Source of the DNA: a virus
Virus record (IMG/VR): IMGVR_UViG_3300050821_018577
Location: 64,001 to 128,000 of that record
Reading direction: 5' to 3' (one strand)
Length of the DNA stretch: 64,000 nt
The notes under the pieces: model-generated
Seen by the model: only the letters and a program-made list of their open reading frames with translations
The model's database searches: none
Told to the model about the DNA's origin: nothing
Program-made: the position numbers and the translations under genes
Shown: positions 10,537 to 23,726 of the stretch, piece after piece
Position numbering within the stretch: the stretch's first letter is position 1
Layout of the letters: every line of letters starts with the position of its first letter

Positions 10537-11144
10537 GCGCGGACATTGCAGAATCGTTGACAGAAATCATCGGCCAGATTCTTGACGATTCGCGTTATCT
10601 TGAAGGGATCACCTATGGGCTGCCGCGCAAAGGCCACGAGGAAGGCACGGTCAAAAACCACATCTTTGAATTACGCCAGAGTCTTGAAAAACTTTCCGGG
10701 ATGCTCAGTGAAGAAGAATATTTGAAACTGCTCATCCTGATTCACGTCCATGACAGTTTCAAGCTCGCCGGCAAGCGGCTCTCCGACAATCATCAAGTCT
10801 CGTTGCGGGATCCGCGCAGCCACGCGTCGCTGGCCCGCGCATTTCTGGCCGAATTCACTAACGACGAATCGATGCTGGCCGTTGCGCAGTGGCACGATGA
10901 AGGCCACGCGCTCTGGAAGCAGGTGGAGGCCAAGGGAAAATTCAGCGTTGTGCGGCTCGATGAAGCCTTGCGCTACATTCCGGATGTGGAGCTCTATCTG
11001 CTGTTCACGGTCATCGACGGCTACACTAAGAGCAAACTGAAAGACCGGACGCCCAAATGGTTTCTGGACGTCGTGCGCGACCACTGTGTTCCGCCGCAGC
11101 CATATCGGGCTTACAAAGCCTTAGAGCTACTGGAGGCTGGATGA
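10533..11144 (+). CDS. HD-domain phosphohydrolase
   Basis: YG.PRKGHEEGTVKNH, IHVHDSFK, SHA, WHD metal-ligand pattern. Confidence 0.65.
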   Translation: MSADIAESLTEIIGQILDDSRYLEGITYGLPRKGHEEGTVKNHIFELRQSLEKLSGMLSEEEYLKLLILIHVHDSFKLAGKRLSDNHQVSLRDPRSHASLARAFLAEFTNDESMLAVAQWHDEGHALWKQVEAKGKFSVVRLDEALRYIPDVELYLLFTVIDGYTKSKLKDRTPKWFLDVVRDHCVPPQPYRAYKALELLEAG

Positions 11145-11794
11145 GTTTTTCACGCCGCGCCCTGCAAGCCGAAGCAGACGCCCGGGACCGGATCCACCAG
11201 CGTCAAAAAAGCAGCCGGCCATTGAGTGAGGACTATTCGCTCCTGGGTGTCGCCGGCGAAGCGCAATTTGAAAGAGATTTTAAAATCCCGCGCGACAGGC
11301 GCCTACTTCCAGGAGGCGATGGCCGCGTCGATTTTACTTTAGGAGACTACACTTTCGACCCGAAGGTGGCGGCAGCCTGCGGCCTCGACGGATGGTACAT
11401 CCTGCTCGAAGCGGACAAGCACAACGCGCGGATCATCGTCCAAGGAAAATTTTGCGAGGAAGGCGGCGAAATTTCAGTGGTCTGGCTCGGCTGGGAATAT
11501 TCCGGGGAATTACTAGCATGTCCTGTCAAGCGGCTGAATCCCAAAGGCCCGCTAAATCATTTCAAACCCATCAAAGAGTGTCGGAAGATGTCCGAGCTCG
11601 CGGAAATCATCCGTAACGAAAAAATTCGTCTTGGCCTTGTCGTCAAGCCGAAGCTGGACCTGAGACTAGCGCCCGGAGCCCTGTGCGGCAGTATGTCCTG
11701 CAACGGCTGTTATGATATCGGCGACGACAAGACGATTCATCCGCCGCGGCCTGGATACGAGCAGCAGCAACTCATTGTTCTCGACGGAGACTAA
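11141..11794 (+). CDS. PD-(D/E)XK-like nuclease domain protein
   Basis: GVAGEAQF...GDGRVDF.....FDPK pattern. Confidence 0.45.
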   Translation: MSFSRRALQAEADARDRIHQRQKSSRPLSEDYSLLGVAGEAQFERDFKIPRDRRLLPGGDGRVDFTLGDYTFDPKVAAACGLDGWYILLEADKHNARIIVQGKFCEEGGEISVVWLGWEYSGELLACPVKRLNPKGPLNHFKPIKECRKMSELAEIIRNEKIRLGLVVKPKLDLRLAPGALCGSMSCNGCYDIGDDKTIHPPRPGYEQQQLIVLDGD

Positions 11795-11795
11795 A

Positions 11796-12188
11796 ATGGC
11801 GGCAATCCTTCGCACCTGGCCGGGATTTATGGCACGTCACAAAGTGCTCGAAGTGTTCAATCACGATTGGGGCCAATTCTATTTCACTCTTGGCCGCGGC
11901 AAGCCGAAGCAGGCGACCGAGGAACTCTGGTGGGCGCACAAGGGCACCATCCTTGGCTATTTCAAAATTACCACCATTGTGCGAAACCTGGGCGACAATT
12001 TGCCGAGACTGCAATCCATCTCCGGAGAAACCAGTGAATGGCAAATCAAGTTGATGAATTGGGTGGCCATTTGCGACCCGCCGTTTATCGCAGCGCCGGA
12101 GAAACTGTTTCACGAATCCTTCCGTGGTTATCGGTACTTCGATTTCGCGCAATGGAGCAAGGACCCGTACTCGAAGGTGCGAATATGA
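11796..12188 (+). CDS. hypothetical protein (possibly PUA-like)
   Basis: Aromatic-rich; C-terminal SFRGYRY. Confidence 0.6.
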   Translation: MAAILRTWPGFMARHKVLEVFNHDWGQFYFTLGRGKPKQATEELWWAHKGTILGYFKITTIVRNLGDNLPRLQSISGETSEWQIKLMNWVAICDPPFIAAPEKLFHESFRGYRYFDFAQWSKDPYSKVRI

Positions 12189-12382
12189 GGGAGCCAAAGA
12201 ACAGAAACCTCTGCGAGTTTGTGTTTTGCAGTAATCCGTGGACGGTGACAGTCGCCCGCGCCAACATGAATGGCGGCGGGCCAAGTTGGAGTTTACATTT
12301 CTGCGGTCAGCATGCCAAGCCGTACGCTAACGGTAGAGACCCGTACGAACGTCATGTGGTCACATTGACCAAGAGGCTGTAA
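12185..12382 (+). CDS. small Cys/His protein
   Basis: CEFVFC...HFCGQH; overlapping start and stop. Confidence 0.5.
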   Translation: MREPKNRNLCEFVFCSNPWTVTVARANMNGGGPSWSLHFCGQHAKPYANGRDPYERHVVTLTKRL

Positions 12383-12660
12383 TGAGTTCGGTTAAATACC
12401 ATTCCCGCTACATCATCGTGACCATTCGCGACGGACAGATTGACTGGATCTCGCAGGCCCGCACTGAACGTGGCGCACAGGCCAGCAAACGCAACTCGAT
12501 GAAATATCGCGCGGCCATGCGACCAAACGGACAATATGAAGTGCGCATCATCGCCATGGAAGATGTTCTGGAGTGGGACAAAATTCGCGAGGAAGCGGAA
12601 AAGTATCGCGCACTTGCGCTTAATCTCGACTCGAAGCGCCGCATTGTGGTGGAGGAGTAA
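12382..12660 (+). CDS. hypothetical protein
   Basis: TAATG overlaps. Confidence 0.6.
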   Translation: MSSVKYHSRYIIVTIRDGQIDWISQARTERGAQASKRNSMKYRAAMRPNGQYEVRIIAMEDVLEWDKIREEAEKYRALALNLDSKRRIVVEE

Positions 12661-13031
12661 TGCTTTTCTACTGGATCATCCTCGCTATCAAGAAAATTGT
12701 ATGGTTCTTCCGTATTCCGAAACCAGAAGACCTGGCGCGCATCGACCCAAATGCGCGTTGCCCATCGTGTGGCGCGCGGGAAGGCAAACTTCGCTGCGTG
12801 CTGAAACGCAAGCCTGGCCCGACAGCCAAAACCGCCACCAATCCTCTTATCTCCGCGCAAATTTTGTGCCAGCATACTTGTCTGGTGGATGGTGCGCGTT
12901 GGTTTGACAAGCCAATCGCAAGCGATGTTGACCCGTCCAAAGTTCTTCCCTCTGTCGCCCGCGATGACCTGGAAGTTGCCGAGGATCGGCAAGCTAAATT
13001 GTGGGCCGAGGAAACCCCACCTTCCGCGTGA
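12660..13031 (+). CDS. hypothetical zinc-finger protein with hydrophobic N-terminus
   Basis: MLFYWIILAIKKIVWFF; CPSC...C...C..C. Confidence 0.65.
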   Translation: MLFYWIILAIKKIVWFFRIPKPEDLARIDPNARCPSCGAREGKLRCVLKRKPGPTAKTATNPLISAQILCQHTCLVDGARWFDKPIASDVDPSKVLPSVARDDLEVAEDRQAKLWAEETPPSA

Positions 13032-13059
13032 ACCGGATTTAGACTAGACTGTTCGCGAA

Positions 13060-16000
13060 ATGGCAAATGGTCGCACCGGCCTCGTTATAAAGCCAGTCAC
13101 GCAGTTGGTGGAAAGCCTGCGTTCGCTCTATCAACGGCCACCGGATAAAATTCGCGGACTAAAAGACGACTCCTGGTATTCGCCGCTGCAGCCGGTACAG
13201 CCGCTCGGACCTCCTGGAACCGAGCCACGCGGATTCCAAACCTGGGCCGGACAAAACTTAATTTTCACGCCGCGTGCCGACGCGGAATTCACCGCCGCCG
13301 ACCTCAAGACCATGGCCACCTATCCTCTGGCGCGGATCTGCATTGAGAACGTGAAGGACACCGTCACGCGGGCTCCGTGGGAAATCCAGATGCGCGCGCG
13401 GCCCACCGAATCGCGCAAGGATGTGGCCAACCGCGCGAAAGACAACAAAGAAACCCTCAACAAGCTGAATAAGTTTTTTGAATATCCCGACCGCGAGCAC
13501 AACTGGCAAGAATGGCTGCGTCCGTTGCTCGATGATTTATTGGTGATCGATGCGCCGGCGATTCTGATTCGACAGACGTTCAACGGCGAAATCGCAGAGC
13601 TCCCGGTCATTCGCGGCGAGATGATTGTGCGTTACATCGACAACAATGGGTTTACGCCGGTGCCGCCGAGTCCCGCATACGCCCAAAACTGGTGGGGCCT
13701 GCCACTTGTAGACCTCACAACTGACCAATTGATTTACAAACCACGTAACATTGTGCCGCGCAACACGTTAGCCTCGCAACTTTATGGAATGTGCGTGGAT
13801 TCCCAAACCGAGATTTTGACACGCGACAGAGGTTTTGTTCGATTCCCAGAACTAAACAAATCGGACTACGTAGCCACGCGTAATCCAGAAACAAAAGAAT
13901 TTGAATGGCAGAAGCCAATTGCCTACACAAATGAACCATACGATGGCGAAATGTATGCGTTCACATCGAAATCGATGGACCTACTTGTCACGCCGCAACA
14001 TCGAATGCTCGTATCCATCCCAACCAAAGGTCCAAATGGGCGGAACGAGACAACTATGTCCGCTGCCGAACTCGCTGACAAAATAAATCACGAACGCAAA
14101 ATTCCAGTAACTGCGCAATGGACCGGGGGTGCCGAAATCGGCGAAATGTTTTTCCCTCGTCGCGCACCGCAAGGAATGGACGTGCGAATAAGCGGTGATG
14201 ATTATTGCGCTTTGGTCGGAGCCTATCTGGCAGAAGGCAATCTATCTCGGCGTCGCGCCGGAGAAATCGGCATCGAAATAGCGCAGATGCCAATGTCAAA
14301 AGGATTTACCGAATACAGTAATTTGATTCGTCGAATCACCGGCGCTCAAGACGGCCACAATGGTAAGGCATTCATCCTGAGACGTCCTGCACTTGGAGAA
14401 CATTTTGAACAATTTGGTAAAGCGCATGAAAAATTTGTGCCATTAGCGATACGGAACGCTCCTCGTCATCAGCTTGAACTTTTCTGGAAGTTTTATCATT
14501 TAGGCGATGGTTGCTTCCAGGAAAGAAAAAATATTTCAGGACGCGGCCAAGTTGGAATCGTGCGCCACGAAGCAACCACGACGAGTAAATTACTCGCAGA
14601 CCATCTTGTAGAAATCGCACAGAAACTCGGATTCTCTGCTCAAGTGAGAGCTGGCTTCATGAAGTTTAGCCCCAACCGCAAGCCAATGAGTTTTTATCGT
14701 GAGTCTTATCATGTGCGGTGCCGCTATTCGACCGAAATGGCAGTTAAGGCCAAAAAGATAAAGTACACCGGTATGGTTCATTGCGTAACCGTTCCAAACG
14801 ACAGCATCTATATTAGGAGGAACGGACGTCCGTGCTGGACAAAAAATTCCCCCACCGAGCAACTTGCCGGTGAAATTCAGGTCGGCATCAAGCGCCTCGA
14901 ATTCGTCCTGGCCTATTACATGGAAGGCAGCGTCCCCGGTGTCGTGCAGGTTGTGCCGCGCGGAACGTCTCCGGACCGCATTGAAGAAGCGATGGAGTGG
15001 ATGAACTCGCAATTGGCCGGCAACTTGTCGAAGCGTAACCAATGGCGTCTCGTGCAAGGATTCAACGAGCCTGGCAAAGCGGACCAGATTATTTTCTCGA
15101 AAGAGCCGTTGCTTGCCGGACTCTACGACGAAAAGCACATCCGCGAAGTGGCTTACGGCTACGGAACCAGCCCACAACGGCTGATGAAGATGATTCGGAC
15201 GGAAGGAAAATCTTCCGCCGACGCCGCGGAAATCGAAGGCACGCTGCCCTGGGTGCTGTGGGTCAAGGGCATCATCGACTTCATCATCCAGCGCAAGATG
15301 GGATTTGTCGATTATGAAATCGCCATCAATCCCTATGCGGAGCCAGACCCGCTCAAAAACGCCGCCGCCCTGACGATGCTGGTCAGCAAGGCGGTACTTA
15401 CGCCCAATGAGGCGCGCAAGCGTGTTGGCGAAGAATTGCGGCCGGAACCGGAAGCCGACCAGCTGGGGATCATCACCGGCACCGGATTTGTTCCTGTCGG
15501 TGTGGCGCCGGCGACGGCCGGGTTGATGGTCGATGAGAAAGGCGCCATCCATCCGCATCCGGTTACGCCTACCGCGCCACCGCAAAAGCCAGCACCAACC
15601 AACGGGGCCCACAATGCGACGCGCGGGAGCACGCCGGTTTCCCAAGAAGCTGGTGGAGGCCGGTCGCAAGGAAAAAACGTCGGAGTGCCTAGCGGTAAAG
15701 AAAGCCTCGACGGTAAAAAAAAAATTCAGCAGGCGTTTCAGTTCGAAAAACGGCTCGGATCGCGTATTGAGCCGGACGTACTGACACCTGAATCACAGCA
15801 AGCCGTCCATCACATCCAGCAGACGCTCCAGAAAGTTTTTGCGGCACAGTCCAAAACCATCGCCACCAGCCGGTTCCACAAACTCCTGGGCAACGCGCTA
15901 GAAAAGCGCAAATTCGGCAACGTGCAATTCAATCTTTCTGTCGATGACGCGCAACGGGTTCTTGAAATTCCCGTCGACGGCACTCACTTCGCTCCGAAGG

Positions 16001-16449
16001 GTCGCGACATGGCGCCGCACGTCACCGTGTTATGGGGCTTCCATCCGGAAGTGACGGCCGAGCAAGTAAATAAAATCACCAAAGGAATCGGCGACGTCGA
16101 CGTAACGCTAGAAAGTCTCGAAGCCTTTCCGGCCGGCGAAGATGGTGTGCCGCTGGTGATTCGCGTCGAAAGCGAAAAGCTGCGCAAACTCCGCGCGGAC
16201 CTCGAAGCTCTGCCGCACACCAAGAGCTGGCCAGAATACAAGCCACACATCTGCGTGGCATATTTGAAGCCGGATGCTCCCGCGCAAGATTACGTGGACG
16301 CCGGCAATCCGCTCGAGGGTGAAACTTTCACGCTATCGCAGTTGGCTTATTCGGGGATCGATTACACCGTGGCGGACCTTGAGAAGTTGTTACTGCCAAG
16401 TGCGCGGCTCGCGCGGGTGACCCATGACGACACCAAGAATCATAGTTAA
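13060..16449 (+). CDS. portal protein with intein and C-terminal 2H phosphoesterase domain
   Basis: HK97-like portal motifs (LLVIDAPA, LIYKPRN, YGM/SPTEQ, GSVPG); intein at aa 245-596; HVT (H987) and HIC (H1063) 2H motifs. Confidence 0.85.
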   Translation: MANGRTGLVIKPVTQLVESLRSLYQRPPDKIRGLKDDSWYSPLQPVQPLGPPGTEPRGFQTWAGQNLIFTPRADAEFTAADLKTMATYPLARICIENVKDTVTRAPWEIQMRARPTESRKDVANRAKDNKETLNKLNKFFEYPDREHNWQEWLRPLLDDLLVIDAPAILIRQTFNGEIAELPVIRGEMIVRYIDNNGFTPVPPSPAYAQNWWGLPLVDLTTDQLIYKPRNIVPRNTLASQLYGMCVDSQTEILTRDRGFVRFPELNKSDYVATRNPETKEFEWQKPIAYTNEPYDGEMYAFTSKSMDLLVTPQHRMLVSIPTKGPNGRNETTMSAAELADKINHERKIPVTAQWTGGAEIGEMFFPRRAPQGMDVRISGDDYCALVGAYLAEGNLSRRRAGEIGIEIAQMPMSKGFTEYSNLIRRITGAQDGHNGKAFILRRPALGEHFEQFGKAHEKFVPLAIRNAPRHQLELFWKFYHLGDGCFQERKNISGRGQVGIVRHEATTTSKLLADHLVEIAQKLGFSAQVRAGFMKFSPNRKPMSFYRESYHVRCRYSTEMAVKAKKIKYTGMVHCVTVPNDSIYIRRNGRPCWTKNSPTEQLAGEIQVGIKRLEFVLAYYMEGSVPGVVQVVPRGTSPDRIEEAMEWMNSQLAGNLSKRNQWRLVQGFNEPGKADQIIFSKEPLLAGLYDEKHIREVAYGYGTSPQRLMKMIRTEGKSSADAAEIEGTLPWVLWVKGIIDFIIQRKMGFVDYEIAINPYAEPDPLKNAAALTMLVSKAVLTPNEARKRVGEELRPEPEADQLGIITGTGFVPVGVAPATAGLMVDEKGAIHPHPVTPTAPPQKPAPTNGAHNATRGSTPVSQEAGGGRSQGKNVGVPSGKESLDGKKKIQQAFQFEKRLGSRIEPDVLTPESQQAVHHIQQTLQKVFAAQSKTIATSRFHKLLGNALEKRKFGNVQFNLSVDDAQRVLEIPVDGTHFAPKGRDMAPHVTVLWGFHPEVTAEQVNKITKGIGDVDVTLESLEAFPAGEDGVPLVIRVESEKLRKLRADLEALPHTKSWPEYKPHICVAYLKPDAPAQDYVDAGNPLEGETFTLSQLAYSGIDYTVADLEKLLLPSARLARVTHDDTKNHS
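13792..14847 (+). mobile_element. intein with LAGLIDADG homing endonuclease (352 aa)
   Basis: Starts CVDSQTEILTRDRG; block B LLVTPQHRM; LVGAYLAEG and FYHLGDG endonuclease motifs; ends YTGMVHCVTVPN..IYIRRNGRPCWTKN with Ser at +1. Confidence 0.93.
15910..16360 (+). other. 2H phosphoesterase (2'-5' RNA ligase / Acb1-like) domain within the portal
   Basis: APHVTVLWGF...PLVIRVESEKLRKLRADLEALPHT.SWPEYKPHICVAY. Confidence 0.8.
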
Positions 16450-16960
16450 TCCGCAGCGGCGTCTCGATGGACTGCTCATCCAGCCACAACCAGCTTTGAG
16501 CGATGTCGAAAAGGCGCGCCGGGAGATGCAGGAAGCTCTCAACCGCAAGATGTTCGCGGAAGTGTTCGATTACGGTGAGCCGGGCGACATGGCTTTGCGG
16601 CCGGCAACGTTCGACGAGAAAGGAAATTACGTTTGCCCGGATTGCAATAAAGATTATGACAATGGGCGATGCACGCTCATCAATATCAACGTCGATGTCG
16701 TCGGCAGTTGCCGTAAATGGGAGAAGAGGCGCGCTTGTGACCAGGAATTGAACGTGGCGCCAAATCCGAACGCGATGACTCCGGAACTCGCCGCTTACGG
16801 CATTGCTGCAAATGGTGAAGGCTTTGGCTGCCACCGTTGCCCATTTCAAGAGAAAGCCTATGAACCCGACAGCCTAGGCCGGGACCGTTATTGCATGCAG
16901 GGAGATTTTCGAATCCCCTGGAATTCCTGCTGTGCCATCAATGGGGCTACGACAAAGTGA
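16424..16960 (+). CDS. Cys-rich protein with two HiPIP-like modules
   Basis: CPDC-x8-C-x12-CRKW and CHRC...C...CC. Confidence 0.55.
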   Translation: MTTPRIIVNPQRRLDGLLIQPQPALSDVEKARREMQEALNRKMFAEVFDYGEPGDMALRPATFDEKGNYVCPDCNKDYDNGRCTLININVDVVGSCRKWEKRRACDQELNVAPNPNAMTPELAAYGIAANGEGFGCHRCPFQEKAYEPDSLGRDRYCMQGDFRIPWNSCCAINGATTK

Positions 16961-17017
16961 ACATCAGACTTCCATACGGTCGATTCTCCAGATAATATTT
17001 TTGACGCGTAGAGGAGT

Positions 17018-17584
17018 TTGCCCATGCCCAAAAACGAAAGTCAGAATGGCAGCAGGACGCATGAGCCATCGCTGCGTGAATTGACTGCGGAGCTCGAAGG
17101 GCTAAAAGAGCTCACATTGGAAAAATTTACCGCTTCCACCGCAATGTCGGACGAACGTGACCGGAGATATGAAGAGCGCTTCAAGGCAATGGACGAGAAA
17201 ACAGGCCTCGCCCTCACATCTAGCGAAAAGGCGGTGGCCAAGGCCGAAACGGCCACGGAGAAGCGATTCGATGCTGTGAATGAATTTCGCGGCCAATTAA
17301 AAGACCAAGCTTCAACTTTACTGCCTAAAGCAGAAGCCGATGCAAAGTTTCGCGCCTACGACGAGAAACTGGACGACATAAAGAAAGAAATCGCCAGCCT
17401 GCGGGAATATCGCAGTAGTGGCGAAAGTAAGGAAAAGACAATGGAGAAATCACACGACGCTGGAACAGCGAGTGTGCGATGGGGGCTCGGGATGATGGTC
17501 ACAATTATTTTTTCTAGTTTGATGTTCCTGCTTGGAATCGTTGGTGCGGTTTTTACGGTCCTAAAATTTGGTATCGGAAAATAA
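17018..17584 (+). CDS. coiled-coil protein with C-terminal transmembrane helix (holin-like candidate)
   Basis: KRFDAVNEFRGQL coiled coil; WGLGMMVTIIFSSLMFLLGIVGAVFTVL. Confidence 0.7.
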   Translation: MPMPKNESQNGSRTHEPSLRELTAELEGLKELTLEKFTASTAMSDERDRRYEERFKAMDEKTGLALTSSEKAVAKAETATEKRFDAVNEFRGQLKDQASTLLPKAEADAKFRAYDEKLDDIKKEIASLREYRSSGESKEKTMEKSHDAGTASVRWGLGMMVTIIFSSLMFLLGIVGAVFTVLKFGIGK

Positions 17585-17753
17585 GTGCGTGAAATGTTCA
17601 CAGTGCGCCGCCGACATCCCACGAAACCAGCAGCGAACCGTGCTACTTGGAGGGAAGTCGGTCGTTATAGACCTTTGCGAGAAATGTATAAAAGAGAATC
17701 AACGTAAGGCCGATGCGTATAAGCCATCGTGGAAGAAGAAGGACCTTGGTTGA
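17568..17753 (+). CDS. small zinc-finger protein
   Basis: CSQC...DLCEKC; start may be GTG 17589. Confidence 0.5.
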   Translation: MVSENKCVKCSQCAADIPRNQQRTVLLGGKSVVIDLCEKCIKENQRKADAYKPSWKKKDLG

Positions 17754-18103
17754 CTTCCGCATACGCGCATCATCAAGCGACTCCATTTTGTCGATGCGCA
17801 AAGGTTCCAGGTTATCCTTCTTTCGTAATCGTCGTCCACCACCACGTTAGGGCCCAGATTACCAGAAGCACGCCGCCAGCGAACGGAAGAATCTTCCATA
17901 TGCGTTATTGGAAGGACGAACACAGCCAGTGGTGGATCTACATTCCCGGATGCGGCGCGGGTGTGCTGTCGAAGCACATCGTCGAAGAGCACGAGGACGG
18001 CACGATAACCGTGACGCCTTCCATCCTTATGACTGGACACAACGAGGGAACGCAAACGCAGCGCCACGGATATTTGACGCGGGGCCAATGGATGGAGTGC
18101 TGA
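17729..18103 (+). CDS. DUF6527-like small protein
   Basis: HEDGTITVTPSIL...HGYLTRGQW; true start may be ATG 17900. Confidence 0.5.
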   Translation: MEEEGPWLTSAYAHHQATPFCRCAKVPGYPSFVIVVHHHVRAQITRSTPPANGRIFHMRYWKDEHSQWWIYIPGCGAGVLSKHIVEEHEDGTITVTPSILMTGHNEGTQTQRHGYLTRGQWMEC

Positions 18104-18129
18104 ATGCTGCGCGAGCGAACTAAAAATCC

Positions 18130-18492
18130 TTGAATGTGGTGCATTTTTCCTATACGGTTTTTTCGGAACATCGAAGGAAACGCATGTGCGATTTGCTTGA
18201 GAAAAGAGATGGTTTTGATGGCGCTCCCTGTGTTAAACACCTGATAGAATATCTTGAAAAGATTATTCCTGGCTTCGCCATGCATGCTATGAAAGAAATT
18301 CAATTCGACAATCGTCTCTCGAAAGCTGAGAACATCAAAGTTATAGTGAACGTACTTGATATTCAACGTAAATACCTAGACGCCTGTAAAGCTGCTGCAT
18401 TAGGCCTACGCCGAATACAGCACCTAACTCCGCTTAAAGAAGGCGACCGGCTCAATCCGGACGGTAGGCGAAAGAAAGAAATAGTACATTGA
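18130..18492 (+). CDS. hypothetical protein
   Basis: ORF in a visibly AT-richer segment; start uncertain. Confidence 0.5.
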   Translation: MNVVHFSYTVFSEHRRKRMCDLLEKRDGFDGAPCVKHLIEYLEKIIPGFAMHAMKEIQFDNRLSKAENIKVIVNVLDIQRKYLDACKAAALGLRRIQHLTPLKEGDRLNPDGRRKKEIVH

Positions 18493-18626
18493 CGCAGTTT
18501 CCGACACAGTTATAAAAATTTCCTTGACTTCGACAAATTCCAAACAAAAATAGCGATTTTAACTCTTATACGGTTATCTGACACAGCTCTTGGCAATGCC
18601 ACATCTCTGGCTGTCCAAATTCCATA

Positions 18627-18965
18627 ATGTACTATTCATGTGGCGACATTATCGCTTGGAGAATAAAAATGAGCATATCGATTTGGCCGAATGGGGCGGC
18701 GCCATCAGTCCCGAAGAGAATCAGCGCAGCGCGTAGCATGAAGTACACGGAACTAGAAGTGGATATGGAAGAGCATCCAGACGGCTCTATCTGGTTAATT
18801 ATCCGTGTATCTTACGACCCTGGCGAAAGATTTAAATTTTGGGGTAAGGTTTGCCTGCCAACCAATACGCTTGGTGCCTGGAAACAAAAAATCGACAGGC
18901 GCTTCGATGCCATCAATGCTTGCCCGGAATTATTTCCAGATGAGGAACTCCCAAAGGCGGCATAG
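18627..18965 (+). CDS. hypothetical protein
   Basis: ORF in the AT-richer segment; start probably ATG 18669. Confidence 0.5.
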   Translation: MYYSCGDIIAWRIKMSISIWPNGAAPSVPKRISAARSMKYTELEVDMEEHPDGSIWLIIRVSYDPGERFKFWGKVCLPTNTLGAWKQKIDRRFDAINACPELFPDEELPKAA

Positions 18966-18983
18966 TTGATATAGAATCCATTT

Positions 18984-19862
18984 ATGCCGTATTCCAGTGC
19001 CGGCGACGCGCCGTCTTATGTCCCCGCGAAACACCGCGCCCAATGGGTGCACGTTTTTAACAGCGAGTGGGACAAACACAAAGACAAGCCGAAAGCGGAA
19101 CGAGAACGCATAGCTTTTTCTGCGGCCAACAGTGTAGCCGGTTCGAACAGTTCCAAAAAATATGCAAAACTTTTGGCCAAAGCGACAGTGGAAGACGTGC
19201 GCGCATTTTCCGATGCGGTCATTGCCGCACTCGAACAGGAATTTCAAACCGTGCCGCTGGAAGTGCAGCCGGCTCTTGAATCCGCGATGCTCAGCGGGAT
19301 CGGTCAAGGAGCATTGCAACTGGAATTTTCATCGGCTGGCTTGATTGCCTCCGCCAACACCGTCGCACAAAACTATGCGCTCGAACGGTCCGCGGAACTG
19401 GTGGGCATGAAGCGCGACGTAGAAGGAAATCTCGTTCCGAACCCGGACGCGCGCTGGGCTATTAGCGACACCACCCGGGAACGGATCCGTGAAATCGTAG
19501 CCGACGCGTTTAGCGAAGAGACTTCTATGAAGGAAATCAAGACCGCCATCCAGGAAGCGCTGGCTGACGAAGCCGAAGGCAACGGCATTTTCAGCGAAGC
19601 CAGGGCGGAACTGATTGCCAGAACAGAAGTTAGTAACGCGCAAGCCGGAGGAAACTTCACTGTTTGGCGCGATAGCGGCGTCGTGCGCAAAGTCCGCTGG
19701 ACAACGTCTGAGGATGAAGCAGTCTGTGAAAGTTGCGATGGAAACGACAACGTGGAAGTAGAATTGGGCCATCCATTTCCATCGGGGGACCTCTATCCCG
19801 GAGCCCATCCGCGGTGCCGTTGCGTATTGGTAGTCAGTGAAATTTCTTCCCAAAAAGCCTAA
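18984..19862 (+). CDS. ChaB-like domain fused to a MuF (gp7/SPP1-like) head morphogenesis protein
   Basis: MPYSS..D.P......QWVHVFNS.W (ChaB); RAELIARTE...W....D..VC..C...HPRCRC (MuF). Confidence 0.85.
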   Translation: MPYSSAGDAPSYVPAKHRAQWVHVFNSEWDKHKDKPKAERERIAFSAANSVAGSNSSKKYAKLLAKATVEDVRAFSDAVIAALEQEFQTVPLEVQPALESAMLSGIGQGALQLEFSSAGLIASANTVAQNYALERSAELVGMKRDVEGNLVPNPDARWAISDTTRERIREIVADAFSEETSMKEIKTAIQEALADEAEGNGIFSEARAELIARTEVSNAQAGGNFTVWRDSGVVRKVRWTTSEDEAVCESCDGNDNVEVELGHPFPSGDLYPGAHPRCRCVLVVSEISSQKA

Positions 19863-19942: not shown

Positions 19943-21196
19943 GTGGCGCAAATCGTGGATATGGTTTTCTACGAAATGGGCGAGCTCCAAAAAATAGACT
20001 TCACCAAGTTTGTTCCGTTCAGCAAGGTCAACCTTGCGTTGCGCGAAGTGTCCGGAATCGTCACCGCCGAGCAGCCCGACAAAGATTTGGAAGTTTGCGA
20101 TTACGAAAAATCAAAACCCTACTATCAGGCGCTGATTTCCGAGATGTCCAAAGCCACAGACGGCGAAAACATTATGCCATTGCGCGAGATGCATCAACTC
20201 TCCGCGGTTGGCAAAGGTATCGGGTTCAATTTCGACGACCAGGACAAAGAAATAGAAATGACATTTAAGGTCGTCGATGACAACGCGTGGAAAAAAGTCG
20301 AAGAGCGCGTTTACACCGGATTCAGCCAGGGCGGCCGGAAGGTCGGCGGCCAGGTTGCGGATCCTGTGTTCAAGGGTTGCCAGAGATACGTCGCAAATCC
20401 AAGCGAAGTTTCACTCGTCGATAATCCGTGCCTGCCGTCTGCGCGTTTCGCTGTCATCAAGACCGACGGCACGGTCGAGATGCGCAAATTCCTCAAGACC
20501 GTTTCTCCCGAACCTGACCCGCGCATTACGGCGCTTGAGCAGGAAGTCAGTTTACTGAAAGCGGCTAACACCTCGCCGATAACAACCAAGATTACGCCGG
20601 CTGCGGAACCCGCGAAAAAAATAAAGAAAGTCGGGGGTAAGGACCTGGAAGCAGCTTCTTTTGCTTATGTCGAGAACCTGGACAAGACGGAAACTTGGCA
20701 ATATCCGGTGCACGAGGCCAAATACGTTCGCTGGAGTATTGCGAAAATGGCGCTCGCATCGGATGCTGAAAAGACCAAGGTTCGCCCCAAGGTCCTCGCT
20801 GCGGCAAAGAAATTAAACATCGACCTGACAACAGAAGAAACAAAAATCGCCGCCATTTTCGCGACCATGCGCAAGGTTGCCCGCGTCTACGTGAACAAGA
20901 ATTCCGACAAGATTGTCAGCGAGCGATTGCAATCGCTCGATAGCGATACAGGCAAGCTGGTTCATGCCAGCCTGCACAAAGGCATGTGGGAAGTATCGCG
21001 TCTGGCCTGCACGCTCGAGGATTTGGCCTGTTTGGTTTTTTCGGTCTGCTGCGAACAAGAGTACGAGTTAGATGAAGATTCCGCATTGCCGGAAATGCTG
21101 GCCGAGAACGTGGCCGCCGTGACCGAAACGCTCATTGCCATGGTGGACGAAGAAACTCGCGAGATGCTCGCGCAAGTGAAAGCGCACGTGAAGTAA
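19943..21196 (+). CDS. prohead protease with C-terminal extension
   Basis: LREMHQLSAVGK, YTGFSQGG, EVSLVDNPCLPSARF; extension contains SFAY...WQYPVH, an accessory head domain. Confidence 0.85.
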   Translation: MAQIVDMVFYEMGELQKIDFTKFVPFSKVNLALREVSGIVTAEQPDKDLEVCDYEKSKPYYQALISEMSKATDGENIMPLREMHQLSAVGKGIGFNFDDQDKEIEMTFKVVDDNAWKKVEERVYTGFSQGGRKVGGQVADPVFKGCQRYVANPSEVSLVDNPCLPSARFAVIKTDGTVEMRKFLKTVSPEPDPRITALEQEVSLLKAANTSPITTKITPAAEPAKKIKKVGGKDLEAASFAYVENLDKTETWQYPVHEAKYVRWSIAKMALASDAEKTKVRPKVLAAAKKLNIDLTTEETKIAAIFATMRKVARVYVNKNSDKIVSERLQSLDSDTGKLVHASLHKGMWEVSRLACTLEDLACLVFSVCCEQEYELDEDSALPEMLAENVAAVTETLIAMVDEETREMLAQVKAHVK

Positions 21197-22028: not shown

Positions 22029-23726
22029 ATGAGTCTTATCAATCAGAATTTTTACAAAGCCGGCATGGCGGAGGCTCGCGCGAATGCAGCGAAAGCGGCG
22101 GCTCCTGGTACTGAGCTCGCGGCGCTCATGAAGCGGGCGTTGCCCAAAGGGCTTGGCGGAGAGATTGACCCCAAGCAATGGCGGTACGAAAACGACGAAA
22201 TCAATCCGCTGGTCAAGATGGTCGGCCGCGAATTAGTGAAGGCCGGCGTCACCACCTCGCTGGGCTTCAACTTTTTCGATTTGCGCGGCCCCGCGTATTT
22301 CATCTTCCCGTTGCTCACGCCATTCATCCAGATGATTCCGCGCATGGGGCGCGTCAATGACGGCGTCGGCACGGCGGCCCACTGGAAGGCCACCCGCAAC
22401 CCGAATAACACGTTTGTCTATGCCGGCGTGCTCGAAGGACAGCGCAACGCGACGGCAACGCCGAACGAAGTCGATTACCTTGCGACTTACAAGGAAATCG
22501 GCATGGAAGGCGGAGAGACCTTCACCGCCCAGTTCGCCGGCGAAGGCTTCACCGACAACCTGGCGGATGAGCATTTCCGCAACTTGGCGCGCCTGCGTCT
22601 CCAAGAAGAGATGATGGTTCTCTGGGGCAACAGCGGTACCGCTGCCGGCAACCTCGGATTTGCTTTAGGGCAGGCGCCGAACGTGACCGCCGCCGCCGTG
22701 GCCGGTACGACCGGTCTTGGCAACGGCGCCAACGTAGTAGCCGCCGTAGTGGCCATCACCGCTTTCGGCATGAACCCGGGTGGGCAGGCCGGTTATGCCG
22801 CTCCTCCAAGCGTTGCAAACGGCATCACCACCAACTACACCCGCACCAACGCGGACGGCAGCACCACCAACGTGGCTTGCGGAGTGAGTGCGATTTCAAA
22901 CGTTTCGGCGACCGTTACGGTCCCCAACACGTCCTTCCAGCAAGTCAAGCTTTCCGTTCCCGCCGTGAAAGGTGCCGTTGGATATGCCTGGTTCTGGGGC
23001 ATTAACGTGGCTGCTACCACGGGCAACGTCAAGCTTGGCTCGATTACCGCATGGCCGAACTATACCGTCACCGCTCCTGCCAACGGCGTGCAGTTGGGCA
23101 ACGCGGCCGGTCTTTCGACCGACAACAGTTTCCAGCCGACAGATTTCGACGGCTTGGGCACCTACTCCTTCCAGAACGGTCTCTGGACCGATATGGGCGG
23201 CGGCTCGTTCACCCCGGCCGGCAACGGCCAGGTCGCCGAAATTGAAAGCGACCTCCAGTATCTCTGGACGAACTATCAGGCACAGCCGGACGCCATCTGG
23301 GTTTCCGCTGACGTAAAGGCTTCGCTCGAATCGGCGATCATTTTCTCCTCGACCGGAAACAACAGCTACATCTTCCAGGTCAGCCAGATGGAGCAGCAGA
23401 CGGGTATGACCGGTGGCTTCATCATCACCGGCTATAAGTCGAAGTACAGCATCAATCCTGCGGGTGGCGACACGATTCCGATTCGCATTCACCCCATGTT
23501 CCCGCAGGGTACGATTCTGTATGACATCAATCGCAACCCATATCCGCACAGCCGCGTTCCTGCGGTTCGGACCATGCTGATGCAGCGCGATTATTACGCA
23601 ATTGAATGGCCAATCGTGACGCGCCAGTGGACTTTCGGTACGTATGTCCAGGAAGTTCTGGCGCATTACATGCCATGGATCTCGGCAATCCGCACTGGCG
23701 TTGGACCGTTCGTAGCGCCCGCCTAA
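22029..23726 (+). CDS. major capsid protein with inserted beta-sandwich domain
   Basis: Position, strong RBS and codon bias; FFDLRGPA...LTP, EHFRNLARLRLQEE, IRIHPMFPQGTI; insertion with VPAVKGAVGYAWFWG. Confidence 0.85.
   Translation: MSLINQNFYKAGMAEARANAAKAAAPGTELAALMKRALPKGLGGEIDPKQWRYENDEINPLVKMVGRELVKAGVTTSLGFNFFDLRGPAYFIFPLLTPFIQMIPRMGRVNDGVGTAAHWKATRNPNNTFVYAGVLEGQRNATATPNEVDYLATYKEIGMEGGETFTAQFAGEGFTDNLADEHFRNLARLRLQEEMMVLWGNSGTAAGNLGFALGQAPNVTAAAVAGTTGLGNGANVVAAVVAITAFGMNPGGQAGYAAPPSVANGITTNYTRTNADGSTTNVACGVSAISNVSATVTVPNTSFQQVKLSVPAVKGAVGYAWFWGINVAATTGNVKLGSITAWPNYTVTAPANGVQLGNAAGLSTDNSFQPTDFDGLGTYSFQNGLWTDMGGGSFTPAGNGQVAEIESDLQYLWTNYQAQPDAIWVSADVKASLESAIIFSSTGNNSYIFQVSQMEQQTGMTGGFIITGYKSKYSINPAGGDTIPIRIHPMFPQGTILYDINRNPYPHSRVPAVRTMLMQRDYYAIEWPIVTRQWTFGTYVQEVLAHYMPWISAIRTGVGPFVAPA

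Follow-up and report, generated by a model that had tools for sequence, protein, structure and literature searches.

What would a phage gain from building an enzyme into the portal of its own head? The question is raised by a gene in IMG/VR virus record IMGVR_UViG_3300050821_018577, an uncultured phage of 178,858 bp rated complete by CheckV, of which we analysed bases 64001-128000 (64,000 nucleotides, hereafter the window; positions are given in its numbering). An open reading frame (ORF) at 13060-16449 on the + strand, uninterrupted over 1129 amino acids according to the ORF list and its translation, joins a portal protein, itself split by an intein, to a C-terminal 2H phosphoesterase domain (Table 1). 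The preliminary description of this stretch had read the fusion as a portal carrying an Acb1-like enzyme, possibly directed against the nucleotide signals of CBASS, an antiphage signalling system based on cyclic oligonucleotides. We found that the portal-2H fusion is real and conserved, that the domain is, by sequence and predicted structure, a complete 2H phosphoesterase with far more to it than two HxT motifs paired by chance, and that its context is best read, as far as comparison of sequences can suggest it, as pointing to a counter-defence role associated with the virion.

The possibility that the fusion is a sequencing artefact, raised in the preliminary description, did not survive a region-restricted homology search of JGI, Logan and ENA assemblies. 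This search recovered 21 portal-bearing relatives with the same in-frame portal-2H architecture, and since they come from independent metagenomes and assemblies an artefact is excluded. A 22nd relative from the same search (P0023) has the 2H domain and lacks the portal core. Identity to the query over the 2H domain ranges from 50 to 86% among the relatives; proteins of 760-773 amino acids are free of inteins, and the greater length of the others is due to inteins or to additional C-terminal domains. In the alignment of 23 sequences, H987, T989 and H1063 are invariant, the pocket residues R982, F1023, Y1060, Y1068 and S1098 show little or no variation, and conservation of the 2H part is about equal to that of the portal core. 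Indeed, in the two most distant portal relatives the 2H identity stands at 64% against 51-59% for the portal (P0019) and at 50% against 31-34% (P0022). When bases 11000-19000 were compared with cultured phages by megablast no match was found, and tblastn with either the domain or the intein-free relative P0002 as query returned no cultured-phage record in which one place covers at least 80% of the fusion; what tblastn matched was limited to phosphoesterases that stand alone (Microbacterium and Maribacter phages) and to 2H-free portals (Brevundimonas phages, 33% identity). On these searches the fusion clade appears so far only in uncultured phages.

The translation places the PHVT of the first catalytic motif from residue 986, so that H987 is encoded by nucleotides 16018-16020, and the PHIC of the second from residue 1062, so that H1063 is encoded by 16246-16248. 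The residue numbers and the coordinates (15910-16360) first given for the domain are correct by this translation, and the account of a Pro/Gly-rich linker followed in frame by a 2H domain is borne out by the uninterrupted ORF and by the composition of residues 816-896, which are 26% Pro plus Gly and 52% Pro, Gly, Ala, Thr or Ser. The C-terminal piece of the protein matches Pfam 2_5_RNA_ligase2 (E-value 6.5e-11, 42.9 bits against a cut-off of 27) and PHROG 755 (E 1.8e-11). As expected of the 2H superfamily, it has both motifs, H987-V-T and H1063-I-C, and a two-lobed 2H fold in the AlphaFold2 model of residues 941-1129 (mean predicted local distance difference test score, pLDDT, 87.6), which is ordered over residues ~953-1106 and resembles solved 2H enzymes with Foldseek E ~1e-5 and VIA Z-scores of 13-15. 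The C-terminal tail that follows is variable and of low model confidence.

The third position of motif 2 is where the domain departs from the usual pattern. Of the 22 relatives, 19 have Cys there, two have Thr and one has Ala; the motif matches of the wider family (146 listed library representatives, described below) have Thr in 121, Cys in 15 (~11%) and Ala in two. Cys at this position is a trait of the clade, in which the change from Thr is probably tolerated.

To place the domain among 2H enzymes, a family profile of 14 domain-only relatives was searched against PDB sequences. The best matches were the 'Anti-CBASS protein Acb1' of Burkholderia phage BCSR5 (E 4.5e-9, with both His motifs spanned) and the Acb1 of Erwinia phage FBB1 (E 1.7e-6); further matches included an Arabidopsis cyclic phosphodiesterase (CPDase; fourth, E 5.8e-6) and archaeal LigT-like proteins (E 1e-3). 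With a profile of the whole portal-2H family, Acb1 was the sole match. A profile is required for this result, a single-sequence PDB search giving noise and a weak Acb1 match (E 0.5). The Pfam Acb1 family (PF23474) was matched by 12 of the 14 domain-only relatives at E of at most 1e-3; for the query, 27.3-27.5 bits are reached with the isolated domain and 23.0 with the whole protein (cut-off 27), the match covering model positions 55-113 of 144 only. We also considered a LigT orthologue, and it is ruled out by the domain's score of 23.5 bits with the LigT/ThpR equivalog TIGR02258, far below the cut-off of 65.7.

When the predicted structure was compared instead, the top VIA matches (Z 13.9-14.8) were a Deinococcus radiodurans CPDase, a Thermus thermophilus LigT-like protein, the Arabidopsis CPDase, Escherichia coli LigT and Usb1. 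FBB1 Acb1 scored Z 13.6 (root-mean-square deviation 2.5 Å, 133 of 137 residues), and the CPDases, LigTs, Usb1, FBB1 Acb1 and the BCSR5 phosphodiesterase all fall within about 1.5 VIA Z units. Our literature search found no paper describing the BCSR5 phosphodiesterase structure. Acb1 cuts 3'3'-cGAMP and further CBASS signals on the 3' side of adenosine. In Acb1 the catalytic tetrad is HxT/HxT (H44, T46, H113 and T115), bases stack on Y12, W74, F107 and W147, E141 contacts adenine, and a C-terminal lid closes over the site (PMC9117128). Conserved aromatics of the portal-2H domain, namely F957, F1023, W1057 (His, Phe or Tyr in relatives) and Y1060, lie near strands corresponding to the Acb1 ones. 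By its nearest characterised relatives the domain may thus fairly be called Acb1-like, since the nearest solved sequences are Acb1 proteins by profile, but the substrate specificity of Acb1 does not follow from the name, as the fold comparison is tied and the Pfam score stands at the threshold.

Most relatives of the domain are parts of large multidomain 'polyvalent' phage proteins. An exhaustive, profile-free library search with the 2H domain returned 2747 proteins at E of at most 1e-3. Among the 146 nearest representatives listed, which do not include the query or the relatives from the region-restricted search, 111 exceed 500 amino acids and 36 exceed 2000. Those sampled combine the 2H domain with MuF, ART-PolyVal, ADP-ribosyltransferase, NUDIX, His_Phos_1 or a lambda-family portal. 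P0041 is the case with the lambda-family portal (PF05136); here the same 2H clade has been fused, independently, to a portal of another family. Single chains running from portal through 2H to MuF occur in P0018, P0020, P0021 and P0022; P0017 (L006 4148-7135) ends in a histidine phosphatase after portal and 2H (His_Phos_1, E 3e-26), and P0029 has His_Phos_1 and 2H with no portal. In relatives L001, L005 and L006 a MuF gene lies 3' of the portal-2H gene with one small ORF or nothing in between, and in the window the MuF gene is separate (Phage_Mu_F, E 1.3e-12; TIGR01641, 35.6 bits). The portal-borne 2H domain is the only one in the 178,858-bp genome, and no match to the ATP-grasp RNA ligase PF09414 was found in the complete genome; a PF09511 search of the genome was also negative, a weak result as its control gave no match anywhere. 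The portal and MuF fusions, the multidomain effector relatives and the missing PF09414 match are those of the polyvalent or head-fused 2H clade, to which the sequences assign this domain.

Portals are dodecamers whose C-terminal crown faces the capsid interior, as in P22, SPP1, HK97 and T4, and MuF/gp7 proteins, located at the portal within the head, exit with the DNA. Because of the MuF and polyvalent relatives and the portal-2H-MuF chains, we read the domain as cargo of the capsid, which may later be released and ejected. Each head would incorporate as many as 12 enzyme domains, beside the MuF protein. The maturation protease may then cut within the linker region, so that the 2H domain leaves with the DNA, or the domain may remain tethered; alternatively, the activity could come from a pool of unassembled portal late in infection. 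By the metal-independent chemistry of 2H enzymes the domain would act as a hydrolase on a nucleotide alarm signal of the host, the likeliest substrates being 3'-5' cyclic di- or trinucleotides of the CBASS type. We give this reading as a whole, that is a portal with an intact predicted 2H phosphodiesterase at its C-terminus, loaded into the head and hydrolysing a CBASS-type signal, about an even chance. The idea of virion-borne counter-defence, already put forward in the preliminary description, is what best fits a context of MuF fusions and polyvalent relatives. Of the two settings offered there, release by the prohead protease fits better than activity of prohead-bound domains 'where assembly is sensed', which is not favoured by the inward C-terminus of other portals and the continuation into MuF in relatives.

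Several points weigh against the head-loaded anti-CBASS reading. A domain tethered covalently to the portal could be ejected only after cleavage, for which no site is known. The interior position of the portal C-terminus is taken from other portals, the model of P0002 being too poor to place it. Our literature search found no activity, substrate, virion or processing data for any portal-2H protein. At the level of the enzyme, the generic 2_5_RNA_ligase2 family, with 42.9 bits, outscores Acb1 with 27.3, and of the Acb1 model only the central third is matched (positions 59-112); the search with the predicted fold ends in a tie among Acb1, LigT, CPDase and Usb1; three of the four residues of the Acb1 tetrad are present, the fourth being Cys1065 and not Thr; and neither the Acb1 lid nor E141 nor the four aromatics that stack on bases could be mapped onto the portal-2H domain. 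Membership in Acb1 proper is not established because of this threshold score with its partial coverage, the Cys in the tetrad and the unmapped lid, E141 and aromatics.

Directly after the linker, a nearly invariant S/A-R-I-E/D-P motif (residues 901-905, nucleotides 15760-15774) opens the helical segment. R902 and I903 are conserved in at least 90% of sequences, and the motif is retained even in the most distant relatives. We regard the segment as a candidate processing or docking site. We do not claim it as a protease cleavage site, as the T4-type (I/L-x-E) and phiKZ-type (S/A/G-x-E) rules do not match R-I-E-P neatly. A bolder version of the head-loaded reading would make the interval between portal core and MuF an exchangeable cargo slot, filled by 2H alone or by 2H with a histidine phosphatase, present in 12 copies per head, cut at S/A-R-I-E/D-P and ejected as a counter-defence of the first minute, with the Thr-to-Cys change tuning the substrate or acting as a redox switch between capsid and cytoplasm; taken as a whole, this is improbable.

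An unlikely but serious alternative is that the domain is directed at RNA, either as a Usb1-like RNase effector or as a LigT/CPDase-like enzyme processing 2',3'-cyclic-phosphate ends against host anticodon nucleases or other metal-independent nucleases. The generic 2'-5' RNA ligase superfamily is indeed its best Pfam family, CPDases, LigTs and Usb1 head the structural matches, the His_Phos_1 domain next to 2H in P0017 and P0029 would suit a two-step end healing, and RNase action was the first suggestion of Iyer et al. 2017 (PMC5512222). The phage also invests in RNA repair, with an RtcB RNA ligase, its only RNA ligase, encoded 50 kb away and outside the window at G000:C1:29069-30151 (E 2.7e-65). 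However, RtcB joins 2',3'-cyclic or 3'-phosphate RNA ends directly, needs no CPDase and would gain nothing from one. The TIGR02258 score is also less than half its cut-off, the profile search ranks Acb1 proteins above all RNA-end enzymes, and the genome has no PF09414 ligase (the PF09511 search being weak), in keeping with a 2H clade never linked to RNA ligases in Iyer et al. (PMC5512222).

That portal-tethered domains clear CBASS signals raised by late structural proteins on the prohead, as the preliminary description proposed, or as free portal, within the same infection and with no delivery to a new host cell, seems distinctly unlikely. The portal is a late protein that appears together with the capsid-type triggers of CBASS, the chain ends after 2H in this phage and in most relatives with no known cleavage site, and the long flexible linker would extend the reach of the domain. 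In solved portals, however, the C-terminus points inward, so that the domains would be enclosed in assembled proheads; the family context is one of packaged or ejected cargo (MuF fusions and polyvalent proteins); and a free late Acb1 would suffice for this task without a load of 12 x ~34 kDa on the portal.

We find it quite improbable that the substrate derives from nicotinamide adenine dinucleotide (NAD) or ADP-ribose (ADPr), whether ADP-ribose 1'',2''-cyclic phosphate (Appr>p) or a Thoeris-type cyclic ADP-ribose. Relatives do carry the 2H domain beside ADP-ribosyltransferase and NUDIX domains in one polypeptide, the Arabidopsis CPDase, which acts on Appr>p, is both the fourth PDB match and a top structural match, and a 2022 survey assigns these 2H domains to the NAD-ADPr network (PMC9503650). 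But the Arabidopsis match spans only ~50 residues around motif 2, the Acb1 matches are longer and stronger, and domains found together in a polyvalent protein mostly act as effectors independent of one another (PMC5512222). A catalytically dead or purely structural domain, for instance a plug or spacer inside the head that lost its motif 2 Thr, would suit the HxC in place of HxT and the HxA of one relative, but it is very improbable given that little or no variation is seen in the two His, the first Thr and several pocket residues, that Cys recurs in related domains, and that conservation equals that of the portal core.

The fusion type and its proposed role were published as computational predictions in 2017 and 2022, and the concept is not new. 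Iyer et al. 2017 described 2H domains 'fused to MuF or portal domains', predicted to be RNases or to degrade immune nucleotides (PMC5512222, section 'The 2H phosphoesterase domain'), and the 2017 and 2022 papers proposed for 2H-MuF and 2H-portal proteins that they are packaged, injected and degrade the nucleotide signals of SMODS/CBASS and of clustered regularly interspaced short palindromic repeats (CRISPR) systems (PMC5512222; PMC9503650, section 3.4.5). Our protein resembles that class in having a portal followed by a C-terminal 2H domain, MuF fused or adjacent, multidomain relatives with MuF, ART and NUDIX, and no PF09414 ligase match; it differs in the Cys for Thr in motif 2, in the intein within the portal and in MuF being a separate gene 2.5 kb away. 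With Acb1 (T4 gene 57B; FBB1, 7T26/7T27; BCSR5, 9Q2G/9Q2Y; PF23474; Hobbs et al. 2022, PMC9117128) it has in common the compact 2H fold and a Y-x-P-H-I-T/C-x-x-Y block around the second His, whereas Acb1 is a free protein of ~150 amino acids with HxT/HxT and here the domain belongs to a portal and has HxT/HxC. LigT/ThpR share the superfamily and fold (Z ~14), but here the equivalog cut-off is not reached and no RNA-ligase partner that would need such an enzyme accompanies the domain.

Two viral enzymes from outside the phages, the C-terminal 2',5'-phosphodiesterase of rotavirus VP3 and coronavirus ns2, are structural matches as well (VIA Z 11-12). VP3 is a virion-core protein with its 2H domain at the C-terminus, and both VP3 and ns2 destroy host 2'-5' oligoadenylate. 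They differ from the portal-2H proteins in belonging to eukaryotic RNA viruses and in their 2'-5' oligoadenylate substrate, and have no specific sequence relationship to them. The same logic is found in the MuF/SPP1 gp7 head proteins with a C-terminal effector or toxin, where an enzyme is likewise packaged through an internal head component associated with the portal; here, however, the carrier is the portal, which is retained in the virion, so that release would require proteolysis. Virion-borne action against CBASS has a precedent of another kind, a 2025 preprint reporting that a different virion ejection protein inhibits a CBASS effector (10.1101/2025.07.23.666291).

If the portal-2H protein were active on CBASS-like signals and entered with the DNA, it would be a pre-loaded enzymatic counter-defence, in place before any phage gene is expressed. 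This locus brings no new concept; what it adds to the published idea is a clade of large uncultured phages that is well conserved and has HxC as a natural variant of the active site. Its value lies in experiments rather than in observation, the idea having been in print since 2017 as a prediction only, and the intein-free relatives would be convenient to express.

Table 1. Features of the portal-2H gene and of the neighbouring head genes, in window coordinates.
Feature	Position	Strand	Basis
Whole ORF: portal, intein, linker and 2H phosphoesterase (1129 aa)	13060..16449	+	ORF list, translation, Pfam and PHROG domains
Portal N-extein, aa 1-244	13060..13791	+	71-89% identity to most relatives; in portal family alignment
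Intein with LAGLIDADG homing-endonuclease domain, C245-N596 (+1 residue S597)	13792..14847	+	Weak Hint_2 and LAGLIDADG_3 matches; precise absence in intein-free relatives
Portal C-extein, aa 597-815	14848..15504	+	Phage_portal stretch 578-789; PHROG 2662 stretch 577-936; 79-94% identity to most relatives
Low-complexity Pro/Gly/Ala-rich linker, aa 816-896	15505..15747	+	Composition; variable in relatives; disordered in P0002 model
Conserved helical segment, aa 897-950	15748..15909	+	Per-column conservation; helix predicted in P0002
2H phosphoesterase domain, aa ~951-1106	15910..16377	+	Pfam, PHROG, AlphaFold2 model, Foldseek/VIA, profile match to Acb1 structures
Catalytic motif 1, H987-V-T989	16018..16026	+	H987 and T989 invariant in 23 sequences
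Catalytic motif 2, H1063-I-C1065 (Cys for Thr/Ser)	16246..16254	+	H1063 invariant
Small ORFs between portal-2H and MuF genes (~2.5 kb)	16424..18965	+	Without Pfam or PHROG matches
MuF / SPP1-gp7-like minor head protein, 292 aa	18984..19862	+	Phage_Mu_F, PHROG head morphogenesis families, TIGR01641
Candidate prohead protease or scaffold (weak)	19943..21196	+	PHROG 34096, E 7.7e-6, 80 residues only

Downstream of the fusion, the small ORFs that precede the MuF gene encode products of 178, 188, ~120 and 112 amino acids, none with a Pfam or PHROG match. Since MuF nearly adjoins the portal-2H gene in L001, L005 and L006, this stretch looks like an insertion into the head module. For the product of 19943-21196 no Pfam or NCBIfam match was found, only PHROG 34096 ('head maturation protease'). 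That gene and the one at 22029-23726 occupy the positions expected of protease or scaffold and of major capsid protein, and PHROG 34096 is their only family match. The head module is, judging from its sequence, very divergent, because the genes after MuF are almost without family matches.

The portal identity of the N-terminal part is supported by PHROG 2662 (E 5.5e-33). The Pfam Phage_portal family (PF04860) scores only 19.2 bits in the query, because the intein splits the match, against 42.3 bits in the intein-free P0017 (cut-off 39.1). The N-terminal ~450 amino acids of an intein-free relative found the portals of phages 812, T5, HK97 and GBSV1 by Foldseek, from a low-confidence model and with low template-modelling scores; the full-length AlphaFold model of the intein-free P0002 is poor, with a mean pLDDT of 52.8. 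The intein itself is 352 amino acids long (C245...N596|S597), and the features expected of one are all present, with an N-terminal Cys, a C-terminal Asn followed by Ser, and precise absence from orthologues, which read LYGM|SPTEQ across the site. Its penultimate residue is Lys, where His is usual. Inteins occupy three sites in the portal family, after residues 40, 244 and 268 in the numbering of P0002, and the portal of P0006 carries two of them.

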